Shown: piece after piece, positions 19,892 to 64,000 of the stretch
Layout of the letters: each line of letters starts with the position of its first letter
How positions within the stretch are numbered: position 1 is the stretch's first letter
Source: Anthoceros angustus
Taxonomy: Eukaryota > Plantae > Anthocerotophyta
Assembly: GCA_010909165.1 (NCBI GenBank)
Contig: MU008192.1
Coordinates: 248,001 to 312,000 of the forward strand
Direction: 5' to 3'
DNA: 64,000 nt
The notes under the pieces: model-generated
Seen by the model: the letters and a program-made list of their open reading frames with translations, nothing else
Told to the model about the DNA's origin: nothing
The model's database searches: none
Position numbers and translations under genes: made by a program

Positions 19892-20148
19892 TGTTAAGAT
19901 ATATTGTTGAGTCATATGTACGTGAATTAGGTATATATTAATATACCAAGTACACATTTATAGGGGTAGCTATAATAAATAGTTTAAGTACCCTTGGCTA
20001 GGGTTACAACCCTTGTGAAACGTTATGTCGCTTAAGTTCTAGTTTAAGTTGTCTTTTCAGCATAAGCACTCTTGGTTCTTTTTCTTGAACACAATGTAAT
20101 ATGTAATTGCTTAATTGTAATTGATCTATATCAAACCCATATTTTATA
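19892..20148 (+). repeat. 3' LTR (TG..TA ends)
   Basis: Follows the PPT; immediately followed by TSD CTGCC. Confidence 0.95.
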
Positions 20149-27036: not shown

Positions 27037-28029
27037 CTACCTCGCTTCCCCTTCCCTTTGTCCTTTCTGGCTCGGCCACGTGCCTCATCCCGCCTCCCGC
27101 TTATACCGCCTCCAGCTTATGGGCCTTTCCACCGAGGCCTCGCCTCCCCGGGCTCGCAACAACTCCCCGCATCTCCCGGTTCGCCTGTGGGCATCCTTAA
27201 TTTGAGCCATGAGCGCTTCACTGGCTCGTCATGGCTTGCAACTTCTCCGGCCCCGCACAAATCTTCTTGAATCTTGGCCCTTATTTCCTCTAGGACCCGC
27301 TTGTCTTCCTCCGCTGTTTGCGCTTGGCCTCCTCTTCACAAACCGGCCTTCACCACTTCCTCCCGCCTGCACACCGAGCCGTGAGAGCTAAAGCCGCTTG
27401 ATCCAACAACCGCTGGGCCCGGATCATCGACGTGGTCAGCCGCAAGTCCACTTGTGGCGGCCCCGCCAGACGCCATCCTCCTGCCGAGAACTTTCTCCCA
27501 AGAAGGTGCGCACTCACCAACTGCTGCATCCACCTGCTGCTGGAGTCCCCTTGAAAATCTCTTCCCATGCCGAGGAGGGGTCCGCGAGGTCACCCTAAAC
27601 CCTCCGGAGTTGATTCATCATCCGCATCCGTGTCAAGAAAATTGTCCTCCTCGGATCGCGCCTCCTCTTCGCCACCTCAACCGCTTGGCTTTCATTTTCG
27701 TAGCCTGCTGACCGGTGACACATCCGCCTTCACCTTTTCGCCGATGCCCGCCTTTCCACCCCGGCCTTCCTCTTTGGAATTTCCTTCTCCTCCTCGAATC
27801 GCCTGCCGCCACCGACTCCTGCCTATCCGATTTTTCCCGATTTCCTCCTTGGGCTCCTCCGCCCATTTCACCTCCCTAACTGCTTCCACATGTGGAGGAG
27901 GCCACAATTCCACCTCCGCGTGCGCTAGCACATAAAGATGGACCAAATGGTGAGATTAGAGAGGGTCGAGGGTAGGAGAAATCGTTCAACCTCTTCACAC
28001 AACTTGTCAAGAGAATTCGTCCCCAATCG

Positions 28030-31000: not shown

Positions 31001-31560
31001 GGAAGGCGCCGCGATGCGCGGGGGATATGCGCCGGCAAGCGCGTCAGAGCTTGCACCGGGCGATGTGGTGCGCAGCGTAGCTTTTGGGCTTGTAACTGCC
31101 CCTGTCGAACGCTGTCTGAAAGGCGCCCATAAAGAGGATCGGCTGGCATGCGCTGACGGGCGGGGTGAGGAGGCCGTGGAAGCGGCGGTGGCTCGCGGGC
31201 TTTCGGGCGACGGTGGAGCCGGTGTGGGAGTGGGAGAGCCCGGCAAATCCACTCCACCGACTCCGCATGTGCGAGCCGCTGAGGCACCCGGGAGGCGAAA
31301 TGTGGCACGACCGGTCCGGGGAAATGGGTACTCATGGTATTGGAGGTTGCGTGATTGTCCGCAATGCACAAAGATTTACCGCTTCGTGGAGACAGATGTG
31401 GCTGCCCACCGAGGTCCGTTGAGGTGGAGTCAAGGTGCCTCGATGGGCGCCGCCATGCACGCATGGCACGGAATGCGGAACGCGCCTAAAGAATCGGCAT
31501 GGCACGTTGGTGCCGTTGTGGATGCACTCAAGACCCGGGATTGCACCGCGTGCACGACCA
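28030..31560. repeat. Tandem duplication of an unidentified unit of about 1.8 kb
   Basis: TTTGACCACTTCATGAAGGAA at about 28035 and 29843; CAGCTACCGCCCAATCGG at about 28803 and 30586. The copies differ by many small indels. Confidence 0.8.
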
Positions 31561-35608: not shown

Positions 35609-35959
35609 CGTTCAGGGACCGCTGTCGGAGGTGCATGGACAGGACTAGGCCGCTCACAAACGCGTCCTCTCCACGCGCACAAACCCACGGCCTTTACAGC
35701 AGCCAGGCCAGGGTCGGTGGACTGACCTGGACGGTGAATGGCAGTGCTTAACTGCCCAGGACATGGGAAATTGCTGCAGAAAAGCAAGGCTGGACTGCAG
35801 AATTGGGCTGACTTTGCTCGTGAACCAATCTCATTGTGCAGTCCTTGCATTCTTGAGTTGCTAGTGTGTCATGGGGACACTGTTGTGAGATGAGAATTAT
35901 GTTCTGCAGCTTGTCTCCGTGGAACCCAATGGGGTTGGCCACCACAGCTTAAACATGCA

Positions 35960-36905
35960 ACCAGTGGTTGCATGTTTAATGTGGTTGGCATCAACAGGTT
36001 GCACAGGCCTTCAGAAGGCAAGTAAAAGTAACATGGTCAGCCAAAATGAGGTCCTCTTGCTCCATTTGTCGATACACAACGAGAGCTTCTTGCCCGGTTC
36101 CAAGTTGCTGTGCATACCCAGCAATCAGGGCATTCCATGTCACCTCATTCTTTATGGCCAAGCTCTCAAAAACCTGGCGTGCGTCGTCCAGTTCACCACG
36201 TTTTGCATACATGTCCACAAGGCAGTTGCCCAACATTACATTTTCCTGCAGTCCTCTTTGACAATCTCTGAGTGCGGCTGCCTGCCCCTCTGTATGGCAC
36301 CAGTGGTTGCACAGGCCTTCAGAAGGCAAGTAAAAGTAACATGGTCAGCCAAAATGAGGTCTTATTGCTCCATTTGTCGACACACAACGAGAGCTTCTTG
36401 CCCAGTGCCAAGTTGCTGTGCATACCCAGCAATCAGGGCATTCCATGTCACCACATTCTTTATGGCCAAGCTCTCAAAAACCTGGCGTGCGTCTTCCAGT
36501 TCACCACATTTTGCATACATGTCCACCAGGCAGTTGACCAACACTACATTTTCCAGCAATAATTGACAATCTCTGAGTGCAGCTGCCTGCCCCTCTGTAT
36601 GGCACCAGTGGTTGCACAGGCCTTCAGAATGCAAGTATACGTGACATGGTCAGCCAAAATGAGGTCTTCTTGCTCCATTTGTCGACACACAACGATAGCT
36701 TCTTGCCCGGTTCCAAGTTGCTGTGCATACCCAGCAATCAGGGCATTCCATTTCACCACATTCTCTATGACCAAGCTGTCAAAAACCTGGCCTGCATCTT
36801 CCAGTTCACCACATTTTGCATACATGTCCACCAGGCAGTTGACCAACACTACATTTTCCAGCAATCCTCTTTTGACAATCTCTGAGTGCAGCTGCCTGCC
36901 CCTCT
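35960..36905 (-). pseudogene. PLS-class PPR repeat array fragment (about 3 near-identical triplets)
   Basis: Repeats of NCLVDMYAKCGELEDARQVF / VVTWNALIAGYAQQ / HVTFTCLLKAC with a period of about 303-309 bp. No start or C-terminal domain. Confidence 0.9.
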
Positions 36906-36914
36906 GTGTGTTAA

Positions 36915-37165
36915 CTCTTCGGGAGCCATCACATATTTTGACAATGGTATCAGTGATTCAATCGATTTTGGGAGCGGTGGCTTTGGCAGCAGTTCGGGAT
37001 TTGGCTCAGGCCTAGATTCAGACCCCTTCGGAAAACCAAAAGGACGGTCAACACAACCTGTCCCTTTTGTTGCCCAAGGAGCTGGTATGAAGCTTGGCAA
37101 GTCACAGAAGTCAAACCAGTTCTTAGAATCCTTGAAGGCGGAAGGTGAAGTGATTGTAGAGGAGG
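36915..37165 (+). pseudogene. Coatomer subunit delta (delta-COP) gene fragment
   Basis: [50 protein letters not shown] matches the plant delta-COP linker region as recalled; not searched. Confidence 0.8.
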
Positions 37166-37584
37166 GCCTTGCCGATGATCACCGGTTGTGCTCCTGTATC
37201 CACGAGCACAAGCTTGGGGGCATTCCATTCACAGTGACATGGCTTCCCTATTGTCCACCATGGCATTGCTCACCCGCACGTTCATGCGGTTAGTGGGCTG
37301 AATGCGTGGATGCTCCCGAGTGCTTCGTGCGCCCTGAGAGGCATAGGCGCGAATCTGCCCTGGAAGTGGCTGGTTCTAACCATGACTGTCGGGGGCGTGC
37401 CCAGCCATTCCTATCATCGTGACATGTGCGAGGCAGTACCCAGCCATTCCTGTCATCGTGACATGTGCGATGGTGCTGGGCAGTACCCAGCCTGGATCAC
37501 CAGATATGACTGCCCATGTGGGCTCTGCCGGCTGTCCCGGCTGTCCCGAGTATGGGACTGTAGGGTCCTGACGCTAAAGACACC

Positions 37585-38340: not shown

Positions 38341-38687
38341 TCCAGCAACAGACTGTTTTGGCAGCATCAGCATCCGCAGGAAACTAACTGTGTATGACTA
38401 CAGACGGTGCAGACCGTTTTTTATTGCGTACAGAAAAAGACCGTTATGGTGTCAAAGTTTTGGGCTTGTTAGGGTTAGTAAGGAAGGACTTTGGTGCGCA
38501 AATTTGCTGGAGTCCAGCTACATACCTAAACATTCCTCAAGCATTGTCATAACTGTCGACATGCAGACTCTGTGGCCTCAGAAGCTAAGGAGTATGTACA
38601 ACATTCTCGGATTGCCTTGTGCTATGGTGCAGCAAGTTGATTTGCCGGAATTCGGGTCCTCAGGCGGCCGTTCGGCCAAGAGCAGCC

Positions 38688-39836
38688 ATGGAGGGCCAGG
38701 CACAGGGCCCGAAGAAGGGTGCATCTCGCACGAGTTGGGTTTTGATGGACGTGAATGGCCACAGTACTGCGTTGGATGTAGACAAATATGCGATCATGCA
38801 TCGAGTAGGGATACATGCCCGTGATCTTCGGATTCTAGATCCTTTGCTCTCGTATCCATCGACCATCCTCGGGCGCGAGCGGGCCATTGTGCTGAATCTT
38901 GAGCACATCAAGGCTATTATAACAGCTGAAGAGGTTTTGTTGAGGAACCCTCAGGGAGAGCACGTGATACCAATTGTAGAAGAGCTCTCTCGCAGGCTGC
39001 CTGCGAAGAATTATGTGCAGCAACCTGACAATTTTGGAGTGGAGGGTTATGATGTGGATAGTAGTGGAGAGGTTCCCCCTTTCGAGTTTAGGGCATTGGA
39101 GGTGGCTTTGGAAGCTATTTGTAGCTTCCTGGATGCACGCATGACAGAACTTGAGACTTCGGCGTATCCGGCTCTGGATGAGCTGACTAGTAAGATTAGT
39201 AGTCGGAATCTGGACAAAGTGAGGAAGCTGAAGAGTGGGATGACCAGACTCACTGCTCGGGTGCAGAAGGTTAGGGATGAGCTTGAACAGCTTCTGGATG
39301 ATGACGGGGACATGGGTGACCTATTTCTGACAAGAAAAATGATGGGAGCACCATCTCCTACAGCTCGGACGTCTTTGACACCTGGGAACTGGGTTGCCAC
39401 CTCACCAACAATAGGTTCAAGAATCTCTCGAGGGGCTAGCAGAGCTAGTACGGTGTCTACCTATTCTCATGGAGCTGAGGACATTGAGGAGCTTGAAATG
39501 TTGTTGGAGGCATACTTCATGCAGATTGATGGGACTCTAAACAAACTCACAACGCTTCGAGAATACATTGATGACACGGAAGATTACATCAACATTCAGC
39601 TTGACAACCACAGGAATCAACTCATACAGTTAGAGCTTATATTGAGCTCTGCAACAGTAGTCACTGCCCTGTATGCACTAGTGGCTGGAATATTCGGGAT
39701 GAACCTTCCATACAAGTGGAACACCGGCCACTCCTACATGTTCAAATGGGTGGTTATTTTGACAGGGGTTGCAAGTGTTCTTGTTTTCGGGGGTGTACTG
39801 GCATATGCACGCTACAAACGCTTAATCGGTACATAA
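38688..39836 (+). CDS. MRS2: MRS2/MGT (CorA-superfamily) magnesium transporter, intronless, 382 aa
   Basis: [71 protein letters not shown] (GMN motif) and two C-terminal TM segments. ATG 38688 (MEGQAQ) is preferred over the 38619 start. Confidence 0.95.
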
Positions 39837-40593
39837 TGGCCTCGTCTGGAACCTACAACCATGCTTTACAAGATTGTTTGTGTTCAGGGTTTTATTCGGG
39901 TTTTGATTCCCTTCGTTCCCTCGTCGGCACACCACAAGGTGTCGCATTCACTTTGTACAGAATAGCTTCCTCGCCGAATTATCATCAATCGAAACATTTA
40001 TCTCTGGTACACGTATGGGTCACAGGAAAATAAATCTAATAGAAATACAAAAACATTCGTTTTGGAATAGACCCAATTTTTTTTTTGTCAGGAACGATCC
40101 GAAGCGATGTGTCGAACTTTTTTTGTTCTTTTGCAGCTGGAGTTGTAGGATAGTGTTAGAAAGGAAGGTAGGAAGTTTAGGTAAAAAGACATAATGCGAA
40201 ATGGCCTTCGGGAGAGGAGGGTAGGTGCCAAACGTAGTCGGGCACAGGTGCCAAACGTAGTCGGGCACATCAGCTCCTACCGTCGTAGGTCCATACCTAC
40301 CACCATAGGGAGGGGCACCATACCTACCACCATAGGGAGGGGCACCTACCATCGTAAGGGTGCACCTACCACGGTAGGTGGTAACCTACGGGCGTAGGTT
40401 GTTCGAGTGTTCAGCATGTTCGGGCGACTATATGTCATTAGTGGGCGGATTAGGATAAATATGTCTTAAATAGGGTGATTAAAGATAATTCTAGATAATT
40501 AGGATAAATTCGGTACCCTCAAAGGAGAAGGGGACAGCTAAGGGGAAGGAAGCTAAGGCAGGAGGTTCGGATTCAGAAGAATGGGAGCTGGAA

Positions 40594-41365
40594 ATGCCAA
40601 GATTCATATGTTTTGTAGGCCAGATGTCCCGGAAGGACTTGATGGATTTTAGGCCTGAGGCGAGCAAGGAGAATATTCAACTGCAGTGGGTGTATGGTAG
40701 GCATTGGGTCTACTCGAATTTGGAATTGATTGAGGAGTGCTATGCAAGCCTCCATCAATTGGAGGAGGACTTGGTAGCCCTACCGACAAGGAATGCCAGG
40801 ATTGATCCCCGATGTTGGACGGTACGCAACATAAGGCAGGTGTATGAAAGACCTCATAGTGAAGATAGCGGGATTGTTCTTATGAAGAGAACTAGTGATG
40901 GGAAAAGGTCTTCCAGGCCACCTTTGAGGCAATAGCTCTTATGGTGGGAGGAACCTAGCCGAAGACAAAGAATGGATGGAGGATGGAGAAAATAGCCGAC
41001 CTCAAGTGCAGACTTTTTAATTGCTAGGATTGTTCTTAGCCTAGTAAATTATCAGTGAACTTTGTACTTCAGCAATGCCTTCTTACATTTTATGTGGAGA
41101 GTGAAGCAAGGGGAGAAGTTAGACTGGGTCTTATCATGTATGAGGCCTACATACACCATTGAGAGAAGCTTCTCAAGCCCAATGCCTCGGATAAAGGGAG
41201 TGCATTGTCATTGTTATTTGAGTACCTACTGTGTGCACTTGTGGAAACAGAGCGATTGTTGACTCCTAAGGAGTTAAGTGATTTGTGGCAGCCTTTTGTT
41301 GTTGTCCATTTAGAGCCAGGAGTGGAGAGGCCCGTGCCCATTACCATAAGGGAGACACCGAAGTC
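40594..41365 (+). pseudogene. Gypsy accessory ORF remnant, joined directly to RT
   Basis: NIQLQWVYGRHWV..WTVRNIRQVY..FLHFMWRVKQGEKLDW; homologous to 43040-44100. Confidence 0.55.
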
Positions 41366-41374
41366 GAGGGCATG

Positions 41375-42090
41375 GAGTGGGACATTGTAGATCAACGATG
41401 CAAGGAGCTGGCCGCGGCTGGGCTAATCAGGAAGTCAACTTCTCAATATGCGGCAGCCACTGTGTTGTCACTTAAGAAGGACGAAAATGGTGAGGGGAAG
41501 GATAGGCGAATGTGTGGAGATTACCGTGCCTTGAATGAAGTGACTCCCATGGAACGGTATCCCATGCCCACTCCTGACGAGATTTTGGACGCTATTGGGG
41601 AGGCAAAGTACTTCACCACATTGGATTTTCGATCTGGTTTCAATCAGATTGTCATTGAGGAAGAAGACAAGTGCAAGACAGCGTTTTGGGGCAAGGAACA
41701 ACTCTGGGAATGGGAAACAATACCATTTGGCTTAAAGAACGCCTCCATATATTTCCAACGAGTAGCTGATTTGGAACTACAGGGACTGTCATTCGTAAGG
41801 TGCTACATTGACGACATCTTGGTGTTCAACAACAGTCTGGAGGAACACCTCGAACTCTTGGAAGTCTTACTGCAAAGATTGGCCAAGTCAGGGCTGAAGG
41901 CTCACCCAAAGAAATGTAAATTCGCATATAGGAAGATAGAATACTTGGGGCACAAGATTGTGCCAGGAGGAGTGTTACCGCAGTTGGCCAAAGTGCAGGC
42001 TGTGAATCTCATGCCTAGACCTAGAGATGTTGCTGCCTTGAGGGCGTTCCTGGGGCTTGTAAACTATTATCGTCGGTACATCAGAAACAT
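41375..42090 (+). mobile_element. Ty3/Gypsy family A RT fragment
   Basis: Very similar protein to 20154-21123; PFGLKNA, YIDD, LRAFLGLVNYYRR. Confidence 0.92.
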
Positions 42091-43039
42091 GAGCGGATGT
42101 GGAACACCGAATTTTGGGTCCACGGTTAGAGAAGAGGCGGATGCCTCCTAGTTTTGTTCATATTAGTTAGGTTTCATTTTTCATTTTTCTTTTTCTTACC
42201 AAGAGATTGCTGAAGGGAAGGTACCAACGAGAAGTTGCCCGATGAGAAGCGGGAGGACAGGTTGACAGTCCTCCGACGGGATGAACGGCACGGAGAGGAA
42301 CGGGACCTGAGGAGGGGTCCAACGGCTAGTTCGGACGGAGGACCGGTCAGGAGGGTCGGAAAACTTACGCGCGAGGAGGCAATTCACCGAATCCCGAACC
42401 TGAAGTATCGAGCGTCGGTACCAAACGTAGAAGTGGCGGCGCTAGATTACTCCTCGGCTGCGTCAATCCGTCACTCTCCACATGCAATGGGAGTAAACTT
42501 CTACTCCGACTGAAGAATGCACGTGTGAGGAGATTTGCGCGAGCATGTGCCACCGCCATCCCTTGGCGATTTGTGAGGAAGTCAGGTGCAAGAGGAAGAC
42601 TGAAGGGAGCACATGCAAGGCGTATATAGGATAATTCTCCTTGGTGCTCGGAGTTGTGGAAAATCGCGCATCCTCCTTGCAATTGGCCTTCGGCAAATTT
42701 TGGTCGAGCTGAAGCCTGGACGGTGTCGGGCGGTCTTAGGGTTGCAACGTGGCAGCGAACTGACCCCCTGGTGCATGGCCATCAATTTTCTTTCCTTGGC
42801 CTTTGGCAAATGAAGAACAGTTGACGTTTTTGTTGAAATTTGATGGTGTATAGAGTCCTTGGCCTTCGGACAGCTAGAGGTTTTGTCCTCGGCCTTTGGG
42901 GTTTTGAAATTGTAGCGGAAGTATATAAGGAGGGAGCTGGATGATGATAAACCATTCAGACTGATAGGAGGAACTGAGAGGAGGAGCGACTGGAGCGCTC
43001 TCTAGAGAAAAAGGGTCTGCAGGAACCCTTGGTCGTGAC

Positions 43040-44100
43040 TTGGAGAGACGTGAGGGGTTTTTCCAGCAGAGGGAAATGGAGAAGATGAAGATGCGCAACA
43101 GTCCAGGAGGTGTGCGCAAGCCTTCCAGCAGCAAGGAGGCGACGGCCATGTCGACGAAGGAGAAGAAGAAGGAGAAGCCTGTGAAGGAGAAGGCCGAAAA
43201 AGAGCAGGCCGAGAAGGAGGGGCCAGAGTTTCTATGTTTCAGTGAGCAAGTCTCTTCGAGGGACTTGTGGGATTTTCGGCAATGGGTTGTTGATGATAAC
43301 GTGCAGCTGCAGTGGGCTTACGACAGGCATTGGGTCTGATGTGGATTTGGTAGAGTCTTGCTACAAGTAGCTCAAGCTCACGGCGGAAGAGGCGGAGAAA
43401 ATGGATGAAAGAAACGTCCGGACAGATTCGAAGGGATGGACTGTCCAGCACATGCGCAAGGTGTATGGGAGGCTAGAAAGCGAGAAGGATGGTGTGGCTC
43501 CCACCGAGAGAAATGAAGAAGGCAAGAGGGCAGTAGTGGCTGATCTTCCTGAGGAAGCTCTCAGCATGGTTATCGGAGGGGTGGACGCAAAGATGCGCAA
43601 CGGCTGGAGGACAGACAAGATTGCGAACCTCAAGTGGAAGCTTTTTACAAGGATAGTGCTGGGGCTGACCTGCTGTCAGCGAACCACTTACTTCGCGTTC
43701 TTTCATTTTATGTGGAGATTGAAGCAAGGAGCTCATCCTGACTAGGGGACAGCCATGCTGACTGCTTATGAGCATCACCGAGACAAGTTGCTGAGGCCAA
43801 ACATAGTGGACAATGAAGGAGCGAGGCACAGGCATTTGAGCACTTACCTGGTGCATTTGTGGGCGGCACATGGAGTACTCACAGAAGAGGAGTTGGAGGA
43901 ATCTTACCAGCCATTTAAAGTGGTCCCTCTTCGGGATGGTACAGGGGTCCCTCGCCAAAAGAAGGTTAAGAAGGCGAAGGAGGAACCCAAGGTGAAGCAA
44001 GGGAGTGCTTCACCTCAGGTGGTGGTTTTGGATGATGAGGCCACGCAGGCATCTAACGCCCAGGAAGGAGAGGTGCATGTGGAGTGCCAATCCGGTGTTC
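43040..44100 (+). pseudogene. Retrotransposon accessory ORF resembling Athila/Tat extra ORFs (putative plant transposon protein-like)
   Basis: ORFs 43040..43339, 43401..43745 and 43755 onward join up. The MWRLKQGAHPDWG..LSTYLVHLWAAHGV pattern is typical of such ORFs; the family assignment is inferred. Confidence 0.5.
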
Positions 44101-44260
44101 ATGACCCCGGCAGCTTGTTTTGGGCTAGATTTGTTTTTTTTTTTTTGATGTTACTTCTTAGCAGGGATAGGGCGGAGTTAGCCAATAAGGCTATTTTTGG
44201 CCAGATTGCACTTAGTGTGCAATCCCTAGACCCTCGGTCCGTTACAGGCCGGAGCGGTCC

Positions 44261-44368
44261 GGGCGGGGTCCGACGGAGTGGTCTGTCTGGGCGGGGTCCG
44301 ACGGAGTGGTCCGTCCGCACGGGGTCCGACCGAGTGGTCCGGCCAGGCGGGGTCCGACTGAGTGGTCC
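44261..44368. repeat. 4 x 28-bp tandem repeat (GGGCGGGGTCCGACGGAGTGGTCyGTCy) in an LTR/promoter-like block
   Basis: Units start at 44261, 44289, 44317 and 44345; TATA-like GTATAAA near 44538. Confidence 0.85.
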
Positions 44369-44814
44369 TGCCATGCGACTTAGTTCGGTCGGGCGGCATA
44401 GTCTAGAATGGATCTGTTGCTGGGCAGGAGAGCGGCCGGTGGAGGAAGTCCGGCGAAATGATGAGCTACGGCATGGCGGTTACAACGACCTAGGGTTAGG
44501 GTTCATAACTAGGTGGGTTAGATTAGGGTGTGAGGGAGTATAAAGAGGCCTAGGCGCCCAAGACCGGGGGACTATCCCGGGTACCATCTTCGCACTCCGT
44601 GTGCTCTTGCCTCCCGTGTTCGAGGAGCGGAGTGTGTTCCTGCGTCACCGTGCAGGACTAATTAGTGGTAGAGGGATGTGTTGAGAGTTCTGGTGACGAG
44701 CTCCGCCAACACGCTTGATGGGTGCAGACCGGGGCGGGGTTGAGCGTGAAGGAAGTCAGGGGTTTGACTCGGCGGATGTTGACAACCCTTGAAGACGAAG
44801 CAAGTGTCTAAGAT

Positions 44815-45260
44815 TTGCCACAGGAGGTAGCAATGATGTCATTGCTGACCTTCGAACCAAGCATCTATGTGGAGAAGCGGAATGCTGCACGAGTGGGGGT
44901 GGCTTTGGTCAACAATCGGGAGAGGCACATTGAAATCAATGGATTCCCACCAAGGAGGGTGTTGATTGACACCGGAGCACAGCTAGTGATCGTTGGAAGA
45001 AGAGTGAAGAAAGCGTTGGGTCTCCACCAAGAAAGGTTGAAGGAAACCAAGTGGAAGATCCAAACTACAGCTAGGACCACGGAGCATGTGTTGGAGGTGA
45101 CAAGGTACAAGCTGAAGGTTTCATTCAAACCAAGAACAGCTGACTTCACCTTTGTCGAGGTACACCGCTGGTCACCGATGCACATTTGATGTCTTGGAGC
45201 GGACGCTTTGTACAAACTCGAGTCATGGTGGATTTGTGGACGGAGATAATCTACTATCGA
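44815..45260 (+). CDS. Retropepsin-type aspartic protease domain of pol
   Basis: HIEINGFPPRRVLIDTGAQLVIVG, followed by a DVL-like flap motif near 45190. Confidence 0.85.
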
Positions 45261-45662
45261 CCAGGCTGGAGAAGCTGGAGCAAAACCGATGAACGGATTG
45301 CCGCATCCTCCGCATGCATGGCAAGGATCATGAGAACCTCATTGCCAGCGTCTACCCAGTGTTTGGCGCCGTGGTGAAGGACACGCCATACGTGCTTGAA
45401 CCTCTTGGCGTGTGTCTAACAACATCGACGATGGAGGATTTCGACGAGGAGGAGGAAAACAAGCTAGGGTTGCAACCACCCTCGGAGGAGGTTCTTCAAG
45501 TCACCGGACGAGCGGTGATCAGCAATGAGCCGTGCAAAAGGCTGTGGAGGATGGTGCAAGAGGACCGGTGCCCTATGAGCCGAGAACGCTGTAAGTTCTT
45601 GCCTAGGGTTGAGCCTGCTTGTGACCTAAACACCTGTGTCATCACATGGCGACCTGGAAGAC

Positions 45663-46560
45663 ATAGTGCTCGTGGAACTCTTTGGAGGCATCGCACGGCT
45701 TGGAAGCAGTAAAGTGTGGCATCAAAGTGCGAAGATACGTGCATTGTGACCCGGATCCAAAAGCAAGGATTGTGTCACGTGTAAGAGACTTGATGGGGAG
45801 TACCTAACCTCGGCGTGGGAGTCGGTGAAGGGTTACCGTGGCGCCGATGGATGTTCGCATGATAGGGTTGTCCCATTTGAGTTGTCTTGGGCAACCGGTG
45901 GACCTTGTCATCGCAGTTGGGAGTGTCAAGGACTATCCTCCGCAGCAAGGGTCAAGGTCTCAAGGATCCACGAACAGATTGTTCTATGACAATGAGGATC
46001 TTGCGCTTGATCCGAAAGGGCAAGAAAGGCCTTGTGGATACATGTTGGAGAATGTGCCGATGCATGAGCGTGAAGAAGCAAGTTCGGAGGATTTTGCCAC
46101 GATCCGAGGAGTGTTGGGTCGAGCTTCTATTGGATGCGACTCAATTTGGTTCGAGGGCTCATAGGTTGAGGTCCATGTGGACTAACCTTGCTCCTTGGAA
46201 CATTTGAAGTGTGCGAGGTCGCTCACCAAGCGACCTAATCATGTTGTCAAGGATGTGCTAGCATCGGAAGGCATGCCCAACAAGTCATCAAGACCGACAA
46301 GCCGCACTGTGAACACGCCTGGACACCCCATGGCGGCTTGGCCAACCTTTGTGTCCAAGTCCAAGTCTTACGCCTTGGGAACCATGGCCCCTGCATTGTG
46401 GTGGACAGACATGGCGAGGTTTTGGAGAGCCAACACCACGAGAGGGAGTTGGCCATGGGATTTGATCCGAGCCACGAAGACACCGGAGTGACCGAGAAGG
46501 AACGGTGTCGATTGCTTGGGCAAGCATTTGACGTGAACATGATGACTGGTTGTTTAGCTG
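45663..46560 (+). CDS. DNMT3-like C5 cytosine methyltransferase domain inside pol (frameshifted in this assembly)
   Basis: Motif I IVLVELFGGI.. LEAVKCGIKVRRYV (DNMT3A: VLSLFDGIATG..LGIQVDRYI); III DVRMIGLSHL; IV PVDLVIA(G)WECQGLS with Cys TGT at 45924-45926; VI YMLENV at 46048-46056; VIII LLDATQFGSRAHRLRSMWTNL; IX ERELAMGF; X ERCRLLGQAFDV (DNMT3A: ARQRLLGRSWSV). Confidence 0.9.
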
Positions 46561-47789
46561 GAGTCGCTTACCAACTTCAAACCAAGAAGGCGGGGTTGAA
46601 GCGCGGGTTCGGTGGGTGAAGGATATTCGACTCGCATCTCAGGAGAAGGCGAGTTTGAGGGCAAGGAGAGCGAGCACGTAGAGGAAGCGTGCAAGCCATC
46701 CGAGCCACACCACATGAGTGGTTAACAGGCGTCGAGTTGAAGAGCAATCAAGCGTCGGCTAAAGGAGTTGTTGGAGGCATCGCGACATGTGTTTGCTTTC
46801 ACGCTTGCGGAGATGGGGAAGTACACCAAAGGGAAGTTCCACATAGATCGACCACGGATGAACCAGGTGCAGAGGGCAGTGCAAGGCCGAGTGGGATTTG
46901 GTTGAGAATCGATGCCAAGAGCTTCTCAAGCTAGGGCTGATTCGACGATCTAACTTGACGCATGCGGCTCCAAAAGAAGGATGGGAATGGATTGTGGACG
47001 GAGAGGAGAATGTGTGGTGACTATCGGCCGTTGAACAAGCGAATCCCACATAACCACTATCCCATGCCGACGGCCGAAGAGATCTTCGACACCATTGGGT
47101 ATGCCATTGGACTTGAGGCTAGGGTTTCGCCAAGTAGAGATCGCCAAAGAAGACAAGAAGAAAACGGTGTTCTGGGGCAGAAATTGCTTGTACGAGTGGA
47201 ACTACATGCCATTTGGGTTGAAGACATCGCCAACGCAGTTCCAAAGGTACATGGACAATGAGCTCAAGGACTTGCATTTCGCCAAGTGCTACATTGATGA
47301 TGTCATCATCTTCAGCAATACCTTTGAGGAGCATCTACAACATCTTCGAGCGCCTTTGCTAGACGGCTTGTGGGTTGAAGGCCCATCCAGGAAGTGTCGA
47401 TTTGGAGAGGATAAGGTGTTGTACTTGGGTCATTGGATCACGCTGACTCGCCGCATGCCACCAAGGTGGAGGCAATCGCGCATTCGAGCCAAACGACATC
47501 TCAAGTTGAGGGCATTCTTGGGTTTGGCGGTTACTACGGAAGTTCATTCCGATGGATGAGCGGATTGCGCGCCATTGAATGACTTGTTGAAGAAGTTGGT
47601 GACTTGGCGTTGGACTCAAGAGGAGGAGTCTTTCATGGAGTTGAAGGGTAGACTCATGAGCTCGCCAATTCTTGGTCATCCAAACTTCAGCCGTCGACTT
47701 TACATCGGGAGCAAGTACGATAGGGCCTTGGCGCAGATCAATGACAAGGAAGAGGAACATGTCATTGCCTATGCCACGGAGCAACAACC

Positions 47790-49408
47790 GGTGAGTCCAA
47801 CTACTCGCCTATGAAGGAGAATGTCTTGCGCAATGTGGGTCGGACACTTTCGTCCGTACTTGTTTGGACATCAATTTCGACTAATCACCATCAACCCTTG
47901 CATTGGTTGATGACGAACGCCAAGCTTAAGGTGAAAGTGGCGAGGTGGGCTCTCATTCTCCGAGTATGACTTTGTCATCGAACACCGAGCGTAGAGTTCA
48001 CTCTAATGCCGATGGTTGTCAAGGAATCCTCTACCTCGTGAAGACACTACGGGGCCAGGCAAGATTCGGATGACGAGCAACCGGTGGGGGAGAGTAGTCC
48101 AGATACCATGTTGGCCATGCTGCATGAGGATGTCAAGATGCCCTCCACTCATCGCTTTGAGAGTCCGCTGTGACATCCGGATGCAATAGCGGTGACCTTC
48201 CTAAGGTCGGGAATTGCCACAAGGGCTTTCATCTCGAGCGGCCAAGCTACGCGAGAAGGTGGCTCGATTATTGGAAGGAGGACATAATGTATGTCCGTGA
48301 TTCTGGAGATAGAATTGTACCCAAGCCGGAGGACCGGTGAGTCCAACTACTACGCCTATGAAGGAGAATGTCTTGCGTGTGGGCTGGACACTTTCGTCCG
48401 TACTTGTTTGGACATCAATTTCGACTAATCAAACCATCAACCCTTGCATTGGTTGATGACGAACGCCAAGCTTACGGAAAGCGGCGGTGGGCTCTCATTC
48501 TCCGAGTATGACTTTGTCATCGAACACCGAGCGTAGAGTTCACTCTAATGCCGATGGGTTGTCAAGGAATCCTCTACCTCGAACGAAGACGGGGCAAGAG
48601 GGCAAGAGATGAGCAACCGGCTGGGGGAGAGTAGTCCAGATACCATGTTGGCCATGCTGCATGAGGATGTCAAGATGCCCTCCACTCATCGCTTTGTATG
48701 CAGAGTCCGCTGTGACATCCGGATGCAATAGCGGTGACCTTCCTAAGGTCGGGAATTGCCACAAGGGCTTTCATCTCGGCCAAGCTACGCGAGAAGGTGG
48801 CTCGATTATTGGAAGGAGGACATAATGTATGTCCGTGATTCTGGAGATAGAATTGTACCCAAGCCGGAGGACCGGTGAGTCCAACTACTACGCCTATGAA
48901 GGAGAATGTCTTGCGTGTGGGCTGGACACTTTCGTCCGTACTTGTTTGGACATCAATTTCGACTAATCAAACCATCAACCCTTGCATTGGTTGATGACGA
49001 ACGCCAAGCTTACGGAAAGCGGCGGTGGGCTCTCATTCTCCGAGTATGACTTTGTCATCGAACACCGAGGTAGAGTTCACTCTAATCGATGGGTTGTCAA
49101 GGAATCCTCTCGTGAAGACACTACGGGGCAGGCAAGATTCGGATGACGAACACCGTGGGGAGAGTAGTCCAGATACCATGTTGGCCATCTTTGCATGAGG
49201 ATGTCAAGATGCCCTCCACTCATCGCTTTGTATGCGAGTCCGTCAGGACATCAGGCGGATGCAATAGCGGTGACCTTCCTAAGGTCGGGGTGCCACAAGG
49301 GCTTTCATCTCGAGCGGTGCCAAGCTAGAAGGTGGCTCGGTACTATTGGAAGGAGGACATAATGTATGTCCGTGATTCTGAGGAGATAGAATTGTACCCA
49401 AGCCGGAG
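47790..49408 (+). repeat. 3 tandem copies of a unit of about 540 bp (RNase H end and integrase linker)
   Basis: CCGGTGAGTCCAACTACT at about 47789, 48335 and 48872; each unit ends GTACCCAAGCCGGAGG. Confidence 0.88.
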
Positions 49409-51583
49409 GGTGAGACTCATCACCGTGTGCATGAAGGCTTAGGGCATTTTGGTGCTAAGCGCACCTACAGATGCTCAGCCCACACACTTTTGGGCAAGGA
49501 TGTATGGAGATGTGGAAAGGCGGTCGCGAATGTAGAGTGCGATCGAGTGAAGGCAAGGTTCACACCAATGATGTTGTGCTTCACTCTGCCGATCCGAGGA
49601 CTCTTCTGGTGGAGTGTGGATCTCATGCCGGACATGCCGAGACGCATCGGAAACAAGCATGTCATGCTAATGGTGGAGCATTTCAGCAAGTGGTGCGAGG
49701 TTGCCATCTTACCCAAGCGTGACTCTCGGCTTACCAAGAAGGCGTTCTTGGCTTCCGCTAGTCGATATGGAGCATGTGAGAGGTTCTCAGACGGGGCAAA
49801 GAATTCGTGGGGAATTTCAAGACTTGCTTGACAGAGCTTGATTGATCATCGACGACGCCGAGAGATCATCCTCAAGCCGATGGACTTGCCGAACGCTTGG
49901 TGCACCTTCAAGCGGGCCTTGCAAATATTGTCTCACAAATGACCAAGACATGGGATGAAGGGATGCCATACCTAGTGCTAGGGTACAGGTGAGCAATCAA
50001 GCGACCTTGAGCAATTTTTCACCATACTACTTGTTGTATGGGCGACAACCATTTTGCCAAACGTGAGGCAAGCAAGGCTACAAGCACCGGTGGATTGGCG
50101 CAATGCGGATGATTGCCTACGAGACCGGAAAGGCGGGCGAGCTTTTCAACGGATCATGCCCATGGCAATGGAGAACCTTGCCATAGCGCAACAGGGATCA
50201 AGCTGCGCTATGCTTACACACGAGGAGGACATGGAAACCCAAGGTGCGCAAGTTCGAAGTTGGAGATTATGTCTACCCGAGCCGTGCAACACCTTGGAGG
50301 TATCCACCAGAGTCATCTTGCGGGTCGTGCGAGTAGGCAAAGATGGAGTGCTTGAGCTCAAGGATCCGATGGTCAAGATGGAAGGATCACCTCAAGAATC
50401 GCACCATGCCACTTACCCAATTTGGACCCTCAACTACGGCCTACAATGTGGCGTCCACCCAAAGACTTGGAGTGTCGTTTGTGGACGATCGATGATGATG
50501 ATGTAATGCTTCTTTGTGATCGGTGCAATAGGGGATACCACATGTTTTGTGTTCAACCACCTCTTGACGACATTCCCGAGGAAGATTGGTTTTGTGCACA
50601 ATGCACTACATGAGGTGCGTCGTATGTAGTTCTACTAATGATAATGTTTGACTTGGAGTCTCACATTATCGGGGGATTGGTTTGCATTTATATATCTGTG
50701 TATTAGATTTGTTTGCTTGGTTGTTGGTCGAGGAAGTGCTTATATGAATTCAAGTGCTTACCTCGTGCGACAGCTGTCATGCCGTGTGATGCTAATCGCT
50801 GCACTTGGGTTTAGTATTTGATTACCACTAATTAATCTAATTACCTAACTTTAAGCAAGTAATTAGTGTTAATTAATCTAATTAATCTGATCTTATGTTA
50901 ATTAAGTATTGATTAGTGTTAATTAAACATAGTTAGCAATAGCTAAGTGGATAAGCTCAAGTAATATGCTTTGGCATATTCCTTGCATATTATAGTGTAT
51001 TCTTAGGATACAATAGCTAAGTGGATAAGCTCAAGTAATATGCTTTGGCATATTCCTTGCATATTATAGTGTATTCTTAGGATATTTCCGCACACGATGC
51101 CAATAGGATATCTTAGGAATATGCCGATGCCAGTCTAGTATATATAGACCCTTCCATTGAGGACAAGCTCGCATCATAGCTTGTCCTCTACATGCAATGC
51201 AAGAGCGTTGTGAGGAGGCCAAAGGTATGACCCGGCACGTGCGAGTAGGCAAAGATGGAGTGCTTGAGCTCGAAGGATCCGATGGCGAAGATGGAAGGAT
51301 CACCTCAAGAACTGCACCATGCCACTTACCCAATTTGGACCCTCAACTACGGCCTACAATGTGGCGTCCACCCAAAGACTTGGAGTGTCGGGTTTGTGGA
51401 CGTCGATGATGATGTAATGCTTCTTTGTGATCGGTGCAATAGGGGATACCACATGTTTTGTGTTCAACCACCTCTTGACGACATTCCAGGAAGATTGGTT
51501 TTGTGCACAATGCACTACATGAGGTGCGTATGTAGTTCTACTAATGATAATGTTTGACTTGGAGTCTCACATTATCGGGGGAT

Positions 51584-52310
51584 TGGTTTGCACCTATATA
51601 TACCGTGTTAGATTTGTTTGCTTGGTTGTTGGTCGAGGAAGTGCTTATATGAATTCAAGTGCTTACCTGCGACGGTGTCATCTTAGTGTGATACTAATCT
51701 CGCACTTGGGTTTAGTGTTTGATTAGCATTAATTAATCTAATTACTTATCTTTAAGTAAGTAATTAGTGTTAATTAATCTAAGTGTGCTTATGTTAATTA
51801 AGCATTGATTAGTGTTAATTAAACATGGTTAGCAATAGCTAAGTGGATAAGCTCAAGTAATATGCTTTGGCATATTCCTTGCATATTATAGTGTATTCTT
51901 AGGATACAATAGCTAAGTGGATAAGCTCAAGTAATATGCTTTGGCATATTCCTTGCATATTATAGTGTATTCTTAGGATATTTCGTATCATGATGCCAAT
52001 AGGATATCTTAGGAATATGCCGATGCAAGTCTATATAGACCCTTCCATTGAGGACAAGCTCGGATCATAGCTTGTCCTCTAGATGCTCTGCATGAGGCGT
52101 TGTGAGGAGGCCAAAGGTATGACTCCGATAGCGATGCGTGAGGAATTTGCGTGTTGTTCTCGTGGGAAGAGTGTGTTTGTGCCACGACGTGGGAGCTACT
52201 CCCTCCTGTCATTATTGGTTTGCATTTATATATCTACGTATTAGATTTGTTTGCTTGGTTGTTGGTCGAGGAAGTGCTTATGTGAATTCAAGTGCTTACC
52301 TCGTGCGACA
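51584..52310 (+). repeat. Putative 3' LTR of Gypsy family B (truncated duplicate at 50678-51230)
   Basis: Follows a GGGGG tract and ends GCGACA. Internal 73-bp tandem repeat, TATA-like TATATAGA, and a 95-bp block repeated at both ends (50678-50772 vs 52216-52310). Confidence 0.65.
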
Positions 52311-57329: not shown

Positions 57330-58783
57330 GCAGAACTCCAACTTGCTGAACATGGACTTGAGGCAGATCACACATGCAAGACATGTTTTCTCTTTTGGTG
57401 CGTAAGTATCAGCCTGGAAAACTTGAACGAACCGAGACCTTTCTGGAACTGCAGGCCTTTTTGCTGTATATGGAATCTCACCATGAAACCTACAGCATTG
57501 AGAAATTTCTGTATGATCACAGGGATCTCTTTGAACTTGCAGGCCAAGGCATGAGCAGACAAACTTTTGTATGGACCAGTTACTGTGAAGGGGCATTTTG
57601 TAAGTTGGAACACCACCTCTTCATGCACTAGGTCTTTGATCATTGGCCCAAGGAAGGATTCCTGGCCTACAGGCAATAGGAAAAACCTGCGGATGTGCAC
57701 AGTTTGAAGGTATGGCTCAACCATTTACATCAGGAAAAAGCAGGACGGTATGGCATCGGCTATCCCAGGGCATTTTATAGATTGTTTGCCTGCCTACGTA
57801 TGGGAATTTTAGAATGCGATGAGCCCACGTTAGAGTGCTGGTACTTGCTCAGCAATAATGTAGGTGACTTCTTGCGTACTCAATGCATTGAGAAACAATA
57901 TTATGTTGATGGGTTGAATGGACGACAGCTTCCCAGGGTCAAGATAGAGCTGGAGAGTGATGAAGAAGAAGAACTGATGGCTCGATATCGGGCCAAGGAG
58001 AGACAACGGTTGGGAAAAGCCCAAGTAGATGAGTATTTTGATCCAGAGGAAAGGTGGGTAGTGGCTCTCTTGGCCACCGCACGAACAAAGTATGAAAAAC
58101 CGTCGGAGCCCCAACTTCTAGACAACATGTTCAAACAATTTTACCGTCGGTTTTACGGGATCTGAGTGTTCAAAGTACTGCCACAACGGACGTAGAAAAT
58201 TGTGGCTGCGACTTTGGCAGGGGGGCCATTTCCGAGCTTAACTTGGAACATTGTCATTTACGGGTTTGCTTTGAGTAGTGTTTGCTACATTTGACTTAGG
58301 GTTAGGCCACTGTTTGTGTCCGCAGCTTTGCAGTACCATGCCCTATGCGCTATGGCGACAACCGGTATGGCATCGGCTATCCGGGCATTTATAGATTGTT
58401 TGCAGCCACGATAAATTTTAGAATCGATGAGCCCGTTAGAGTGCTGGTACTTGCTCAGGAATAATGTAGGTGACTTCTTGCGTACTCAATGCATTGAGAA
58501 ACAATATTATGTTGATGGGTTGAATGGACGACAGCTTCCCAGGGTCAAGATAGAGCTGGAGAGTGATGAAGAAGAAGAACTGATGGCTCGATATCGGGCC
58601 AAGGAGAGACAACGGTTGGGAAAAGCCCAAGTAGATGAGTATTTTGATCCAGAGGAAAGGTGGGTAGTGGCTCTCTTGGCCACCGCACGAACAAAGTATG
58701 AAAAACCGTCGGAGCCCCAACTTCTAGACAACATGTTCAAACAATTTTACCGTCGGTTTCACAGGGATGAGTGTTCAAAGTAA
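57330..58783 (+). pseudogene. Diverged copy of the unknown 5049-6930 ORF (stops, deletion, partial tandem duplicate at 58365-58783)
   Basis: LEADHTCKTCF, RKYQPGKLER.., GYPRAFYRLFACLR, QCIEKQYYVDGLNG, RLGKAQVDEYFDP; TAG stops at about 57629 and 57678. Confidence 0.7.
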
Positions 58784-59414
58784 CGCCACAGGACGTGTAG
58801 AAAATTGTGCGACTTGCGGGGGGCCATTCGAGCTTAACTTGGAACATTGTCATTCTGGGTTTGCTTTGAGTAGTGTTTGCTACATTTGACTTAGGTTAGG
58901 CCACCGTTTGTGTCCGGCTTTGATATTATGCTGTGTATGCATTATCATACGTGACGCCCGTGAAGTGTGCATGTATATGTGGATGGTGTGTATGTCAGTA
59001 TGAGAACATGCACATATGCATGGACACGGTCGATGATGAGCATGTGTATGCTCGCATGAATATGCCCATCTGCGATGTGTGGACAAGGTAGAGCAGTAAG
59101 GGTCAAGTTGTCGGCAACAGGCGCATTAAAAGCCAAGCTGGACGCGTTCACGGCGGGATCACGATCCTTCGTAGGAATCGCGGGCGGCGCCGTACGCCTC
59201 CCAAGATGAGCGCCAGTAATTAAGCAAACGGCGGCGTGGGAAGCGATATCAAAGGCACAATTCAAAGGCAGACGGATTAGCGATGTTTGTTGTTTGTGAG
59301 GAACCATATACAAGGATCCTTTTACGGTGTGAAGCTCTTGGGGGAAACGTCGAAGAACTTGCCTAGAGGAGGTTTCCGTTGATTTTTGGCATTTCCGAGC
59401 TTAACTTGGAACAT

Positions 59415-61008: not shown

Positions 61009-64000
61009 TCACGGTCGACCCTTACAACTGCAAGAACCAGCTGCGAATCGATGCACACGGTAGCCATCCCTTACAACAATGTCTCGCTGCTCAAGCCTTG
61101 ACATTATCTCTGTGGAGCTGTGGCAGTCACTGCACATGCGTAGATTCTTAGTTACCACCAGAGGGGTCCCACTCGGGGTGTTCAAGAGACCAAACGCCAG
61201 AGCTAGCTTCTCAGCATGCCCACAAAGCGCATCTTCCTTCTCCTTCTCAGACAGTGGCTTCAACACCAATTTTGTGTGAGGTACATGGCCTCCTTCCTGC
61301 TTCAGCTGCGCATTCGTGCTCTCTACCTTAAGAGCAATATCCTCCCTCCTTTCTCCCACCATAAATCTATGCACGTGCTTATTCACCTCAATGGTTGCCA
61401 CTGCAGGTTTTTTGTTGGCTCCTGCTACCCTTCTCTGTGTTTCAATCCTGTCTACATCAGTCCACCTACCCGCATCTGCGTAGGCATTGGCCATGAGCAC
61501 ATATGCGGGCGCATCTTGAGGGTCCAGCTTAACAATGCTTTCAAAACACCAAATCGCCCTATCTATATCCCCGTGACTTTTGCAGGCATTTAGCAAACAC
61601 CTCAAGCCCACAACATTACTTTGGCCGTCACATAATAATAGCATCTGCTCAGCCTCATCTAGATAGCCTGCCCGCCCAAGAAGATCAATCATGCAGATGT
61701 AATGCTCGATAGTAGGGTTGATGCCATGCTGTCCAGCCATGGAATCAAAGTGCTTGCGACCCTCATCGACCAGTCCCCCATGACTGCATGCTACTAAAAG
61801 GCAAGTGAAAGTGGCGTCATTAGGCTGAATACCAGCAATCAACATCTCGTCAAAACAAGCAAGTGCCTTGTGACCTTCGTCACAAGTACCATACCCGCCT
61901 ATCAGGGCATTCCATGTCACCACATCATTAGTGTTCATGCTGTCCAGAACCTGGCGTGCATCTTTCAGCTCACCACATTTTGCATACATGTCCACCAGGC
62001 AGTTGCCCAACAGTACGTCATCCAGCAGTCCTCTTTCAACGATCTGTGAGTGCAGCTGCCCTTCTGTAAGGCACCAGTGGCTCCACATGCCTTCAGAAGG
62101 CAAGCAAAAGTAACATGGTTAGCCAAAATCAGGCCCTCCTGCTCCATTTGTCCATACAGAACAAGCGCCTCTTGGCCGAGTCCTTGCTGTGCATACCCAG
62201 CAATCAGGGCATTCCATGTCACCACATCCTTTGGCCAAGCTGTCAAAACCTGGCGTGCATCTTCCAGTTCACCACATTTTGCATACATGTCCACCAGGCA
62301 GTTGCCCACCACATTATCCAGCAGTCTTTCCACAATCTGTGAGTGCAGCTGCCTGCCCTTCTGTAAGGCACCAGTGCTTGCACAGGCCTTCAGAAGGCAA
62401 GCAAAATGGTCAGCCAAAATGAGGCCTCCTCCATTTGTCCATACACAACAAGCGCCTCTTGGCGAGTCCTTGCTGCATACCCAGCAATCAGGGCATTCCA
62501 TGTCACCACATCCTTTGTGGCCAAGCTGTCAAAACCTGGCGTGCATCTTCCAGTTCACCATTTTGCATACATATCCACCAGGCAGGTGCCCAACACTACA
62601 TTATCCAGCAGTCCTCTTTCCACAATCAGTGAGTGCAGCTGCCTGCCCTTCTGTAAGGCACCAGTGCTTGCACAGGCCTTCAGAAGGCAAGCAAAAGTAA
62701 CATGGTTAGCCAAAATCAGGCCCTCCTGCTCCATTTGTCCATACACAACAAGCGCCTCTTGGCCGAGTCCTTGCTGTGCATACCCAGCTATCAGGGCATT
62801 CCATGTCACCACATTCTTTGTGCCATGCTGTCAAAACCTGGCGTGCATCTCAGTTCACCACATTTTGCATACCCAGATATCAGGGCATTCCATGTCACAT
62901 CCTTTGGCCATGTCAAAAACCGTGCATCTTTCAATTTGCCACATTTTGCATACATGTCCACCAGGCAGTTCCCAACAAACAAGTTAGTGGAAATGCCACT
63001 GTGCAACACATCATAGTGCACTTTTCTGCCTGATTCCAAGTCGGCAGCTATTGCACAAGCTTGAAGGACAGCTACAAAGACGTGACCATCCGCCTTCACT
63101 CCTGATCGACGCATCTCATGGTACAGTTGGACAGCCTCAATAGGTTTCCCATGCTTAGCATATGCAGAGATTATGGAAGACCACATGAAGGCATTCGGTT
63201 TGCCGACCCTGGTGAGCACATCCCTAGCCTCTTGTAGCCTACCTCCACAGGCATACATGCGCAAGATATGGTTCCCCAAGTATGCATTCGAATCGTACCC
63301 AAGTTTGACAGTGAGATCATGAACTCTTCGCCCCACAACCAAATCCTTCTTAGCTGTGCACAGTTTGAGCACATTGTAAAACAGAGACTGAGAAATAGCA
63401 GAGTCTGTCTGCGCCAGAGATTCCAGGGCTCCAACGGCCTCAGAAAGCTTCCCTGCTGACATAACATGCTCACGGTTCCAGCCGTTACGACGCCCATTTC
63501 CGATCCTGCACCTGCAGGTTCAGGCTTATCCGGAGCTCGACTTGGAAGGAGGCACCATGACCCATCTGCATATCCAAGGAAACAGCTGCTCATCAACCCA
63601 AGCTGGCTTAACATGTTGTTTAACCACAGGACCTCGCCGGACCCTTACGCCGGAAGTCAGGCGAACGGGAGCTCTTCTTATCTCGTCTGTTGTCCACCAC
63701 ATGGTAGGGTCCAGAAAAATTGTTGCCACAAGTGCTCCTGCTCCTGCACGCCTGCAGGTTCAGGCTTATCCGGAGCTCGACTTGGAAGGAGAGGCACCAT
63801 GACCCATCTGCATATCCAAGGAAACGCTCATCAACCCAAGCTGGCTTAAAACGTTGTTTAACCACAGGACCTCGCCGGACCCTTACGCCGGAAGTCAGGC
63901 GAACGGGAGCTCTTCTTATCTCGTCTGTTGTCCACCACATGGTAGGGTCCAGAAAAATTGTTGCCACAAGTGCTCCTGCTCCTGGCGACGACCATCGCTG
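61009..64000 (-). CDS. PLS-E1-E2-DYW:KP (GRP-type) PPR protein, candidate U-to-C RNA editing factor; 5' end beyond the window; middle frameshifted in this assembly
   Basis: ORF 61009..62103 has P2-L2-S2, E1, E2, then KKPAVATIEV, HAEKLA, CSDC and ends SCSCKGRP. PLS triplets at 62000-62950, first repeats at 62950-63462, PDF/WW-like motifs at 63615-63746 and 63855-63984. Confidence 0.92.

Follow-up and report, generated by a model that had tools for sequence, protein, structure and literature searches.

Retrotransposons carrying a cytosine methyltransferase

The closest described system is KnitGypsy-Dnmt3 of the green alga Klebsormidium nitens, which, according to the available text of its description (de Mendoza et al. 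2018, PMC5890265), has an intronless, non-permuted Dnmt3-type domain in a Gypsy Pol and follows a DIRS-like A1...B1-A2-B2 plan. The same text describes SymbioDIRS-Dnmt3 and SymbioLINE-Dnmt of Symbiodinium, which also are retrotransposon-borne cytosine methyltransferases, but belong to other retrotransposon classes, go back to independent captures and reside in a dinoflagellate. For such enzymes, methylation of the cDNA in cis was proposed there; the SymbioDIRS-Dnmt3 domains were active in yeast, methylating CG, whereas the K. nitens domain produced no methylation, a result called inconclusive by its authors, and human DNMT3B was likewise inactive in the same test. A 2026 preprint (bioRxiv 10.64898/2026.05.21.726589) reports, in the part available, the EpiLTRs of Cymbomonas and Euglena, elements of the LTR class in which a DNMT is combined with a chromatin-reader domain; it cites "streptophytes (Gypsy-DNMT3)", with no land plant named in that part. 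Host DNMT3 with its catalytic domain is known from non-seed plants and is present in bryophytes, according to the accessible text of Yaari et al. 2019 (PMC6453930).

In the literature searched, Gypsy elements of this kind are known only from a green alga, and no DNMT-bearing retrotransposon of a land plant was found; the supplements of PMC5890265 and of the 2026 preprint could hold one. The available portions of two hornwort genome papers, of the hornwort chromatin paper (PMC10952607) with its supplement files and of a plant LTR survey make no mention of such elements, and the accessible text of the plant LTR classification PMC6317226 mentions neither a methyltransferase nor a PHD finger for such a group.

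The locus described here lies in a stretch of 64,000 nucleotides, analysed as a whole and called the window in the following. It almost certainly belongs to the KnitGypsy-Dnmt3 family, with which it shares an intronless, non-permuted domain in a Gypsy Pol and B1-A2-B2 repeats at the 3' end, and it falls on the same side of the DNMT tree; as in the K. nitens protein KFL_009030040, the domain is placed between protease and reverse transcriptase (RT). It differs from KnitGypsy-Dnmt3 in its likely hornwort host, in an identity of only ~35% to the Klebsormidium-like proteins P0158 and P0161, in motif IV (WECQ instead of WPCQ), in a strong depletion of CAG/CTG (CWG) sites and in its apparently high copy number; furthermore, its integrase has a PHD finger, whereas none was seen in the partial K. 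nitens record. The EpiLTR DNMT is sister to DNMT4 and accompanied by a DAM domain and a chromodomain according to the available preprint text, whereas the window domain is DNMT3-like, is accompanied by a PHD finger and shows no DAM domain. Unlike host DNMT3 and DRM, which are separate genes, DRM being permuted (PMC6453930, available text), it is embedded in Pol. We read the locus, with a probability of roughly 0.6, as a 5'-truncated relative of KnitGypsy-Dnmt3 in what is likely a hornwort genome, whose intact copies probably make the enzyme within Pol and likely use it to methylate their own new cDNA. DNMT-carrying Gypsy elements would thereby move from one alga into land plants.

Architecture of the element

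The initial annotation had placed a methyltransferase domain in the pol of a Gypsy retrotransposon, between the protease (DTG at 44968) and RT. The order found, PR-DNMT-RT-RNaseH-integrase-PHD, is that of a Ty3/Gypsy pol with a DDE integrase, and the following features were assigned:

44736..44744, plus strand: approximate 5' break of the window copy, where contigs of other copies diverge
44812..45186, plus strand: aspartyl protease of pol with DTG at 44968 (PF13975, E 1.7e-6; PF13650, E 5.3e-6; above cut-off)
45657..46559, plus strand: DNMT3-like C5 cytosine methyltransferase domain (predicted; canonical motif order, at least 9 frame breaks, 0 stops)
45918..45929, plus strand: motif IV W-E-C-Q with the catalytic Cys (codon 45924-45926), Glu replacing the usual Pro
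46048..46056, plus strand: motif VI ENV (translation and alignment)
46160..46171, plus strand: motif VIII HRLR (RxR; profile alignment; [AS]HR.R in 66/84 relatives)
46515..46532, plus strand: motif X LGQAFD (profile alignment)
46792..47991, plus strand: reverse transcriptase and RNase H (RVT_1, E 3.7e-17; 304 bits frame-aware; 14 breaks, 0 stops)
47787..49409, plus strand: three near-copies of ~540 bp covering the RNase H end and linker (self-blastn; ~90% alike, with indels)
49391..50610, plus strand: integrase with C-terminal PHD finger (337.5 bits frame-aware; rve and PHD matches; 11 breaks, 0 stops)
50676..50772, plus strand: repeat B1, 97 bp, a DIRS-like split direct repeat (96.9% identity to 52214-52310)
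50773..52213, plus strand: A2 segment of ~540 bp (51669-52213) and an upstream near-duplicate of PHD-B1-A2 (repeat comparison)
52214..52310, plus strand: repeat B2, marking the 3' end of the element; AT-rich host DNA and a neprosin gene come next

The domain is thus flanked by the Pfam aspartyl protease match (44812-45186) on one side and by the RVT_1 match (47035-47556) on the other, in agreement with the placement proposed initially. In the integrase, the first Asp and the Glu of the DDE triad are visible, the second Asp is unreadable, and the PHD match in Pfam was scored on a duplicate at 51249. This near-duplication of PHD-B1-A2 (50326-51231 versus 51238-52123) is likely an assembly artefact, as are the three near-copies at 47787..49409; the pattern of the latter recurs at many other places in the window.

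Since contigs of other copies diverge at ~44740, the window copy lacks gag and A1; loose contig ends in runs X1 and X7 and a step in depth at 44520-44850 support this 5' break. No A1 repeat matching A2 was found in the 64-kb window, the copy being 5'-truncated, and no terminal LTR pair is present in the window, where the 5' end of the element is missing and split repeats form the 3' end. A tyrosine recombinase, the hallmark of DIRS elements, was absent from the window ORFs scanned, an rve-type integrase being found instead. The whole A1...B1-A2-B2 plan exists in two related loci, L050 and L053, in the latter at 2849-11154, around an 8.3-kb element with remnants of DNMT, RT and integrase-PHD; B1/B2 pairs occur in at least a dozen further loci. 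The designation as a Gypsy retrotransposon stands for pol; the element is probably not a standard one with two LTRs.

Gag-like ORFs at 42968-44130 were considered as the gag of the element and rejected, as deep contig cover is missing there and the other copies diverge at ~44740. They form, with 40495-41244, a pair of related ORF remnants upstream of Gypsy pol pieces, without a Pfam match and with an 88% relative in run X8. The stretch 44240-44700 is GC-rich, with short tandem repeats and a TATA-like box, and resembles a lone terminal repeat of another element; it has no second copy in the window.

Identity of the methyltransferase domain

In a three-frame translation of 45657-46559, the strings ELFGGI (45675), GIKVRRYV, DVR..PVDLVIA, WECQ, ENV, AHRLRSMWTNL (from 46157), ERELAMGF and RLLGQAFDV (from 46512) follow each other in alternating frames. 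We take WECQ, ENV, HRLR and LGQAFD to be motifs IV, VI, VIII and X of a C5-methyltransferase; the catalytic Cys, ENV and RxR count among the key catalytic residues of these enzymes. A family profile built from 84 database relatives only aligned with the window domain over nearly its full length (205.7 bits, E 2e-77, frame-aware with X at breaks), crossing nine frame breaks and no stop, compared with 13-20 bits in eight shuffles and 19 bits on the reverse strand. This alignment is collinear: the motifs are ordered I-IV-VI-VIII-IX-X, and not circularly permuted as in plant DRM, in line with the proposal made from the motif strings. A second profile scored 196 bits here and at best 26.6 bits in the background, and no second copy of the domain was detected elsewhere in the window on either strand. 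Motif IV had been read as GWECQ; WECQ with the catalytic Cys is seen, but the preceding G is unreadable at a frame break directly before W and was inferred. At this break, contigs of runs X1, X2 and X3 show an indel relative to the window.

Single-frame fragments of the domain (4 + 5) matched neither Pfam PF00145 nor PDB, a word-index search returned no homologue for them, and viral and metagenome contigs gave nothing useful. For the 77 C-terminal residues, the first Atlas match was a DNMT3B-family cluster (0.96). A representative search returned 27 matches, of which only P0080 and P0093 are true relatives; among the other 25, a check of 11 showed no relationship, most of them being repeat proteins rich in Cys/His, and the remaining 14 were excluded for their many-stretch pattern. 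P0080 and P0093 were aligned with the window fragments, and the resulting search yielded 97 proteins. PF00145 was matched by seven of the 11 relatives scanned (six above the cut-off), and the unbroken domain of locus L003 scored 49 bits against it. The match to this Pfam family that the initial annotation had called for is thus obtained through intact relatives, but not with the single-frame fragments of the window.

As to the enzyme class, a profile of eight relatives ranked DNMT3A/B/C first (E 1e-17), followed by DRM2 (1e-6 to 1e-7) and bacterial enzymes (1e-4 to 1e-5); a small early profile had found nothing in PDB below E 0.4. The predicted structure of P0138, a relative with ECQ as in the window, has a pLDDT of 95, and its first matches are DNMT3A/B structures (E 1.7e-19, TM 0.72/0.85), the model being that of the relative and not of the window domain. 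Profile ranking and predicted fold agree with the DNMT3-like identity proposed initially and indicate a methyltransferase family nearest to DNMT3A/B/C.

Does the domain transfer methyl groups at all? It might have been retained, for example, because it helps Pol to bind DNA or SAM, or because it attracts host methylases or keeps them away. The inactivity of the K. nitens domain in yeast would fit such a role, but human DNMT3B failed the same test (PMC5890265, available text). The residue preceding the catalytic Cys points the same way: the usual Pro is replaced by Glu in the window and in 25/84 relatives, Pro being retained in 48/84, and further relatives have other changes. Against this, neither the window domain nor most relatives have lost the catalytic Cys, ENV or RxR, and the model of the EC-bearing P0138 has the full DNMT3 fold. 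We therefore consider a non-catalytic role unlikely, if the most serious competitor of an active enzyme.

Frame breaks and the state of the window copy

The three domains of pol contain 34 frame breaks and not a single stop in ~1085 codons, and because of this disproportion the breaks are likely errors of the assembly. Decayed relatives show the opposite pattern: in 20 of 31 loci hand-picked from 80, the methyltransferase domain is interrupted by 5-15 stops and by 0-7 breaks. Tandem near-duplications, ~90% alike, occur throughout the window, its host PPR genes switch frame too, and short-read contigs align to it with many gaps (e.g. 15 over 360 bases in one X7 contig). Among the best 12 of 336 and the best 12 of 163 indel entries for the contigs, one indel in the domain coincides with the break at motif IV and six others lie away from the nine breaks, so the true number of indels in the domain exceeds nine. 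Most frame breaks are thus probably assembly indels. Of the differences between window and contigs that were listed, eight fall in the domain, five of them synonymous, and in RT 15 of 22 are non-synonymous.

The window copy might instead be an old dead insertion with real breaks, and the domain would then be a relic that selection in hornworts has ceased to maintain. The breaks in pol, at least 34 in number, the 5' truncation, the many non-synonymous RT differences among those listed and the decay of most related metagenome loci are what such a history would leave behind; the lack of stops in ~1085 codons, the 97% identity of the B repeats, the many indels of the near-duplications and the damaged host genes found throughout the window, and the gapped short-read contigs speak against it, and we regard it as very improbable. 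Neutral decay and loss of the catalytic Cys had been named as outcomes that would undermine the initial annotation; the Cys is kept, and the stop-free frame is unlike that of the decayed loci.

A single open frame for PR-DNMT-RT is not readable in the indel-broken window, but is present in the relatives P0167 and P0186. Locus L003 (321-6809) encodes gag-PR, DNMT and RT-RH-IN, all nearly intact, in a common reading frame that is interrupted by two single stops, one on either side of the intact DNMT region.

The family and the origin of the domain

The family comprises 97 proteins, including K. nitens KFL_009030040, two proteins of Closterium and one of Haematococcus, and all of them contain the DNMT domain. 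It is located before RT in five (including KFL_009030040 and a Closterium protein), after RT/RNase H in 49 (including the Haematococcus protein), before the integrase without an RT in the record in 25, and alone in 18. Among proteins P0095-P0190, the commonest order has DNMT between RNase H and integrase (49/97, Haematococcus lacustris included), their RTs form one branch, and this arrangement was not described in the literature searched. Of 56 metagenome loci that extend at least 1.5 kb beyond RT on its upstream side, 46 have the domain in that stretch and ten lack it, and none has it just after RNase H; many of these loci are redundant, the same insertion occurring in several assemblies.

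In a DNMT tree, in which type A rows were thinned to 44, the window domain is found together with Klebsormidium, Closterium and nine metagenome loci on one side of a branch with an SH-aLRT of 96 (94 in another quick tree); P0138, P0161 and P0152, whose records contain no RT, were assigned to the "before RT" group, and the DNMT-only proteins to the other. The window domain has a long branch (1.07), and its best BLAST matches are mostly proteins outside its tree group. In the RT tree, all DNMT-bearing RTs and the three RTs of the window are separated from 14 other Gypsy RTs by a branch with an SH-aLRT of 100, the window not being specially joined to Klebsormidium. Both are quick trees, without bootstrap and without a host DNMT3 outgroup, and suggest that DNMT and RT share descent with KnitGypsy-Dnmt3-type elements.

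Relatives of a single RT lineage carry the domain at one of two places, in front of RT or behind RNase H, so that its capture probably dates far back. The most economical account is a single early capture and a subsequent shift of the domain; the two orders that coexist among the 97 relatives of this RT lineage suggest a group of long standing in green plants. For the window element, membership of this old lineage, in a land plant, is a better description than a fresh capture. That a piece of a host DNMT3 or DRM was picked up just once, or that the assembly is chimeric, is hardly credible: the assembly is noisy, but the domain has no introns and the canonical order, it occupies the same position in Klebsormidium, in Closterium and in the 46 loci, and contigs of X1 and X7 run across the linker as far as motif I. 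These family data refute a one-off origin and bear out the expectation that other copies carry the domain at this position.

The PR-DNMT-RT region is covered far more deeply by contigs than the neighbouring MRS2 gene (~830-1710 versus 16-23 in X1, and 15,700-151,700 versus 54-94 in X3). Cover of this region is deep and made up of many contigs in the runs of organisms A, B and C, and consists of one contig across 45843-46602 in organism D. This points to many copies of the element, summed contig depth not being a copy number. The element is also a warning that copies of transposons can raise the number of DNMT3 genes counted in a bryophyte genome.

The window contains two further Gypsy fragments that belong to this RT lineage and are 89% identical to one another (20146-21237 and 9147-11060, minus strand; 41372-42094, plus strand), one of them with an integrase-PHD and split by a Copia insertion. 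A profile scan detected no DNMT beside either of them, and a string resembling motif X that lies upstream of the second Gypsy RT (~21570, minus strand), tried as a trace of the domain, was rejected for its background score. As ten of the 56 loci and these two fragments are without the domain, it may be dispensable or often lost.

The host

A land-plant host is indicated by one gene of the window that lies outside the element:

61009..62118, minus strand: PLS-PPR-E-DYW gene whose protein ends in GRP (Pfam DYW_deaminase, E motif and PPR; translation)

GRP is a hornwort variant of the DYW:KP proteins, according to the accessible text of PMC9478123, and this one marker makes a hornwort host likely; the land-plant origin assumed initially is in line with it. 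PLS-PPR genes are located at 61009-63500 and 35900-37200 (both minus strand), the GRP-ending one being of the candidate U-to-C editing factor type.

CWG depletion and the proposed mechanism

The pol of the element contains 55 CAG/CTG sites instead of the 178 expected (z -12.7; ratio ~0.3), CAA/TTG being in excess, CCG normal and CG mildly low (0.77). Over 44800-52300, 3' repeats included, CAG/CTG is at 0.2-0.3 of expectation, the lowest value in the window, and CG is less depleted in the element than in neighbouring host genes and Copia elements. CWG loss is missing from three Copia stretches, MRS2 and PPR, and the two other Gypsy fragments show little or none. The codons reflect this: CAG makes up 6/34 Gln codons and CTG 4/110 Leu codons of the element, compared with 16/39 and 25/103 for the two other Gypsy fragments; GAG and AAG have remained common codons. 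As the element has no stops, the loss arose in a lineage kept open.

Such a pattern is what deamination of methylated CWG would be expected to leave behind. In moss, CWG methylation is under control of the host CMT (PMC6453930), and transposable elements of Anthoceros agrestis have CG and CHG methylation (PMC10952607), both according to the available text. The host CMT is thus the default cause of the CWG loss, which the element's own enzyme could also produce. As a family-wide mark of self-methylation, CWG depletion found no support: at the intact loci L002 and L003, CG is scarce (0.3) but CWG is not (0.87-0.89), AT-rich loci have low CWG irrespective of the domain, and window positions 22000-34000 are CWG-poor as well (0.42-0.61). 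A parallel for self-methylation is seen in SymbioLINE-Dnmt, which has lost CG (PMC5890265, available text), whereas the window element has lost CWG. A more far-reaching scenario combines a single DNMT3 capture near the root of green plants, a move between two Pol positions, continuing amplification in hornworts and methylation of CAG/CTG in each new cDNA by the element's own enzyme. We consider it doubtful; if true, it would account for a 70% loss of CWG at synonymous positions with CG kept, and each new copy would be handed directly to host CMT maintenance without small RNAs.

According to the mechanism that we prefer, intact copies would make the DNMT as part of Pol, Pol would be packaged with the element RNA, and the protease may release the methyltransferase domain. 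The domain would then act in cis, methylating cytosines of the new cDNA while reverse transcription is under way or immediately afterwards, and the DDE integrase with its PHD finger, likely a histone reader, would insert an already methylated copy, which host maintenance methylases would take over. The benefit could be that the new copy resembles resident chromatin or limits its own expression. For the methylation of the cDNA in cis, taken by itself, we see the odds as slightly better than even.

An active enzyme might also be directed by the integrase-PHD complex, with host chromatin or the insertion site as its main target instead of free cDNA. Consistent with such a target, the window element and most long relatives have an integrase with a PHD finger, and the methyltransferase domain has been kept at two Pol positions, one of them directly before the integrase. 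A broad effect in trans is, however, not evident in the CHH context, as vegetative tissue of A. agrestis has almost no CHH methylation (PMC10952607, available text), and we regard this target as improbable compared with methylation of the cDNA. As hornworts can be cultured and methylome data exist for them, the question raised in 2018 becomes testable, namely whether such elements methylate the cDNA that they make, which sequence context is used and who profits.

Surroundings of the element

The remainder of the window contains two related ORF sets at 5100-6940 (minus strand) and 57400-58900, ~75% alike and without a Pfam match. A scan of the window revealed no tRNA genes. The region 21300-34000 consists of GC-rich repeats with tandem near-duplications, CWG-poor and CG-normal, in which only weak RING-finger matches were obtained. 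The MRS2 gene used for comparison is an intronless gene of an MRS2/CorA magnesium transporter at 38589-39836.
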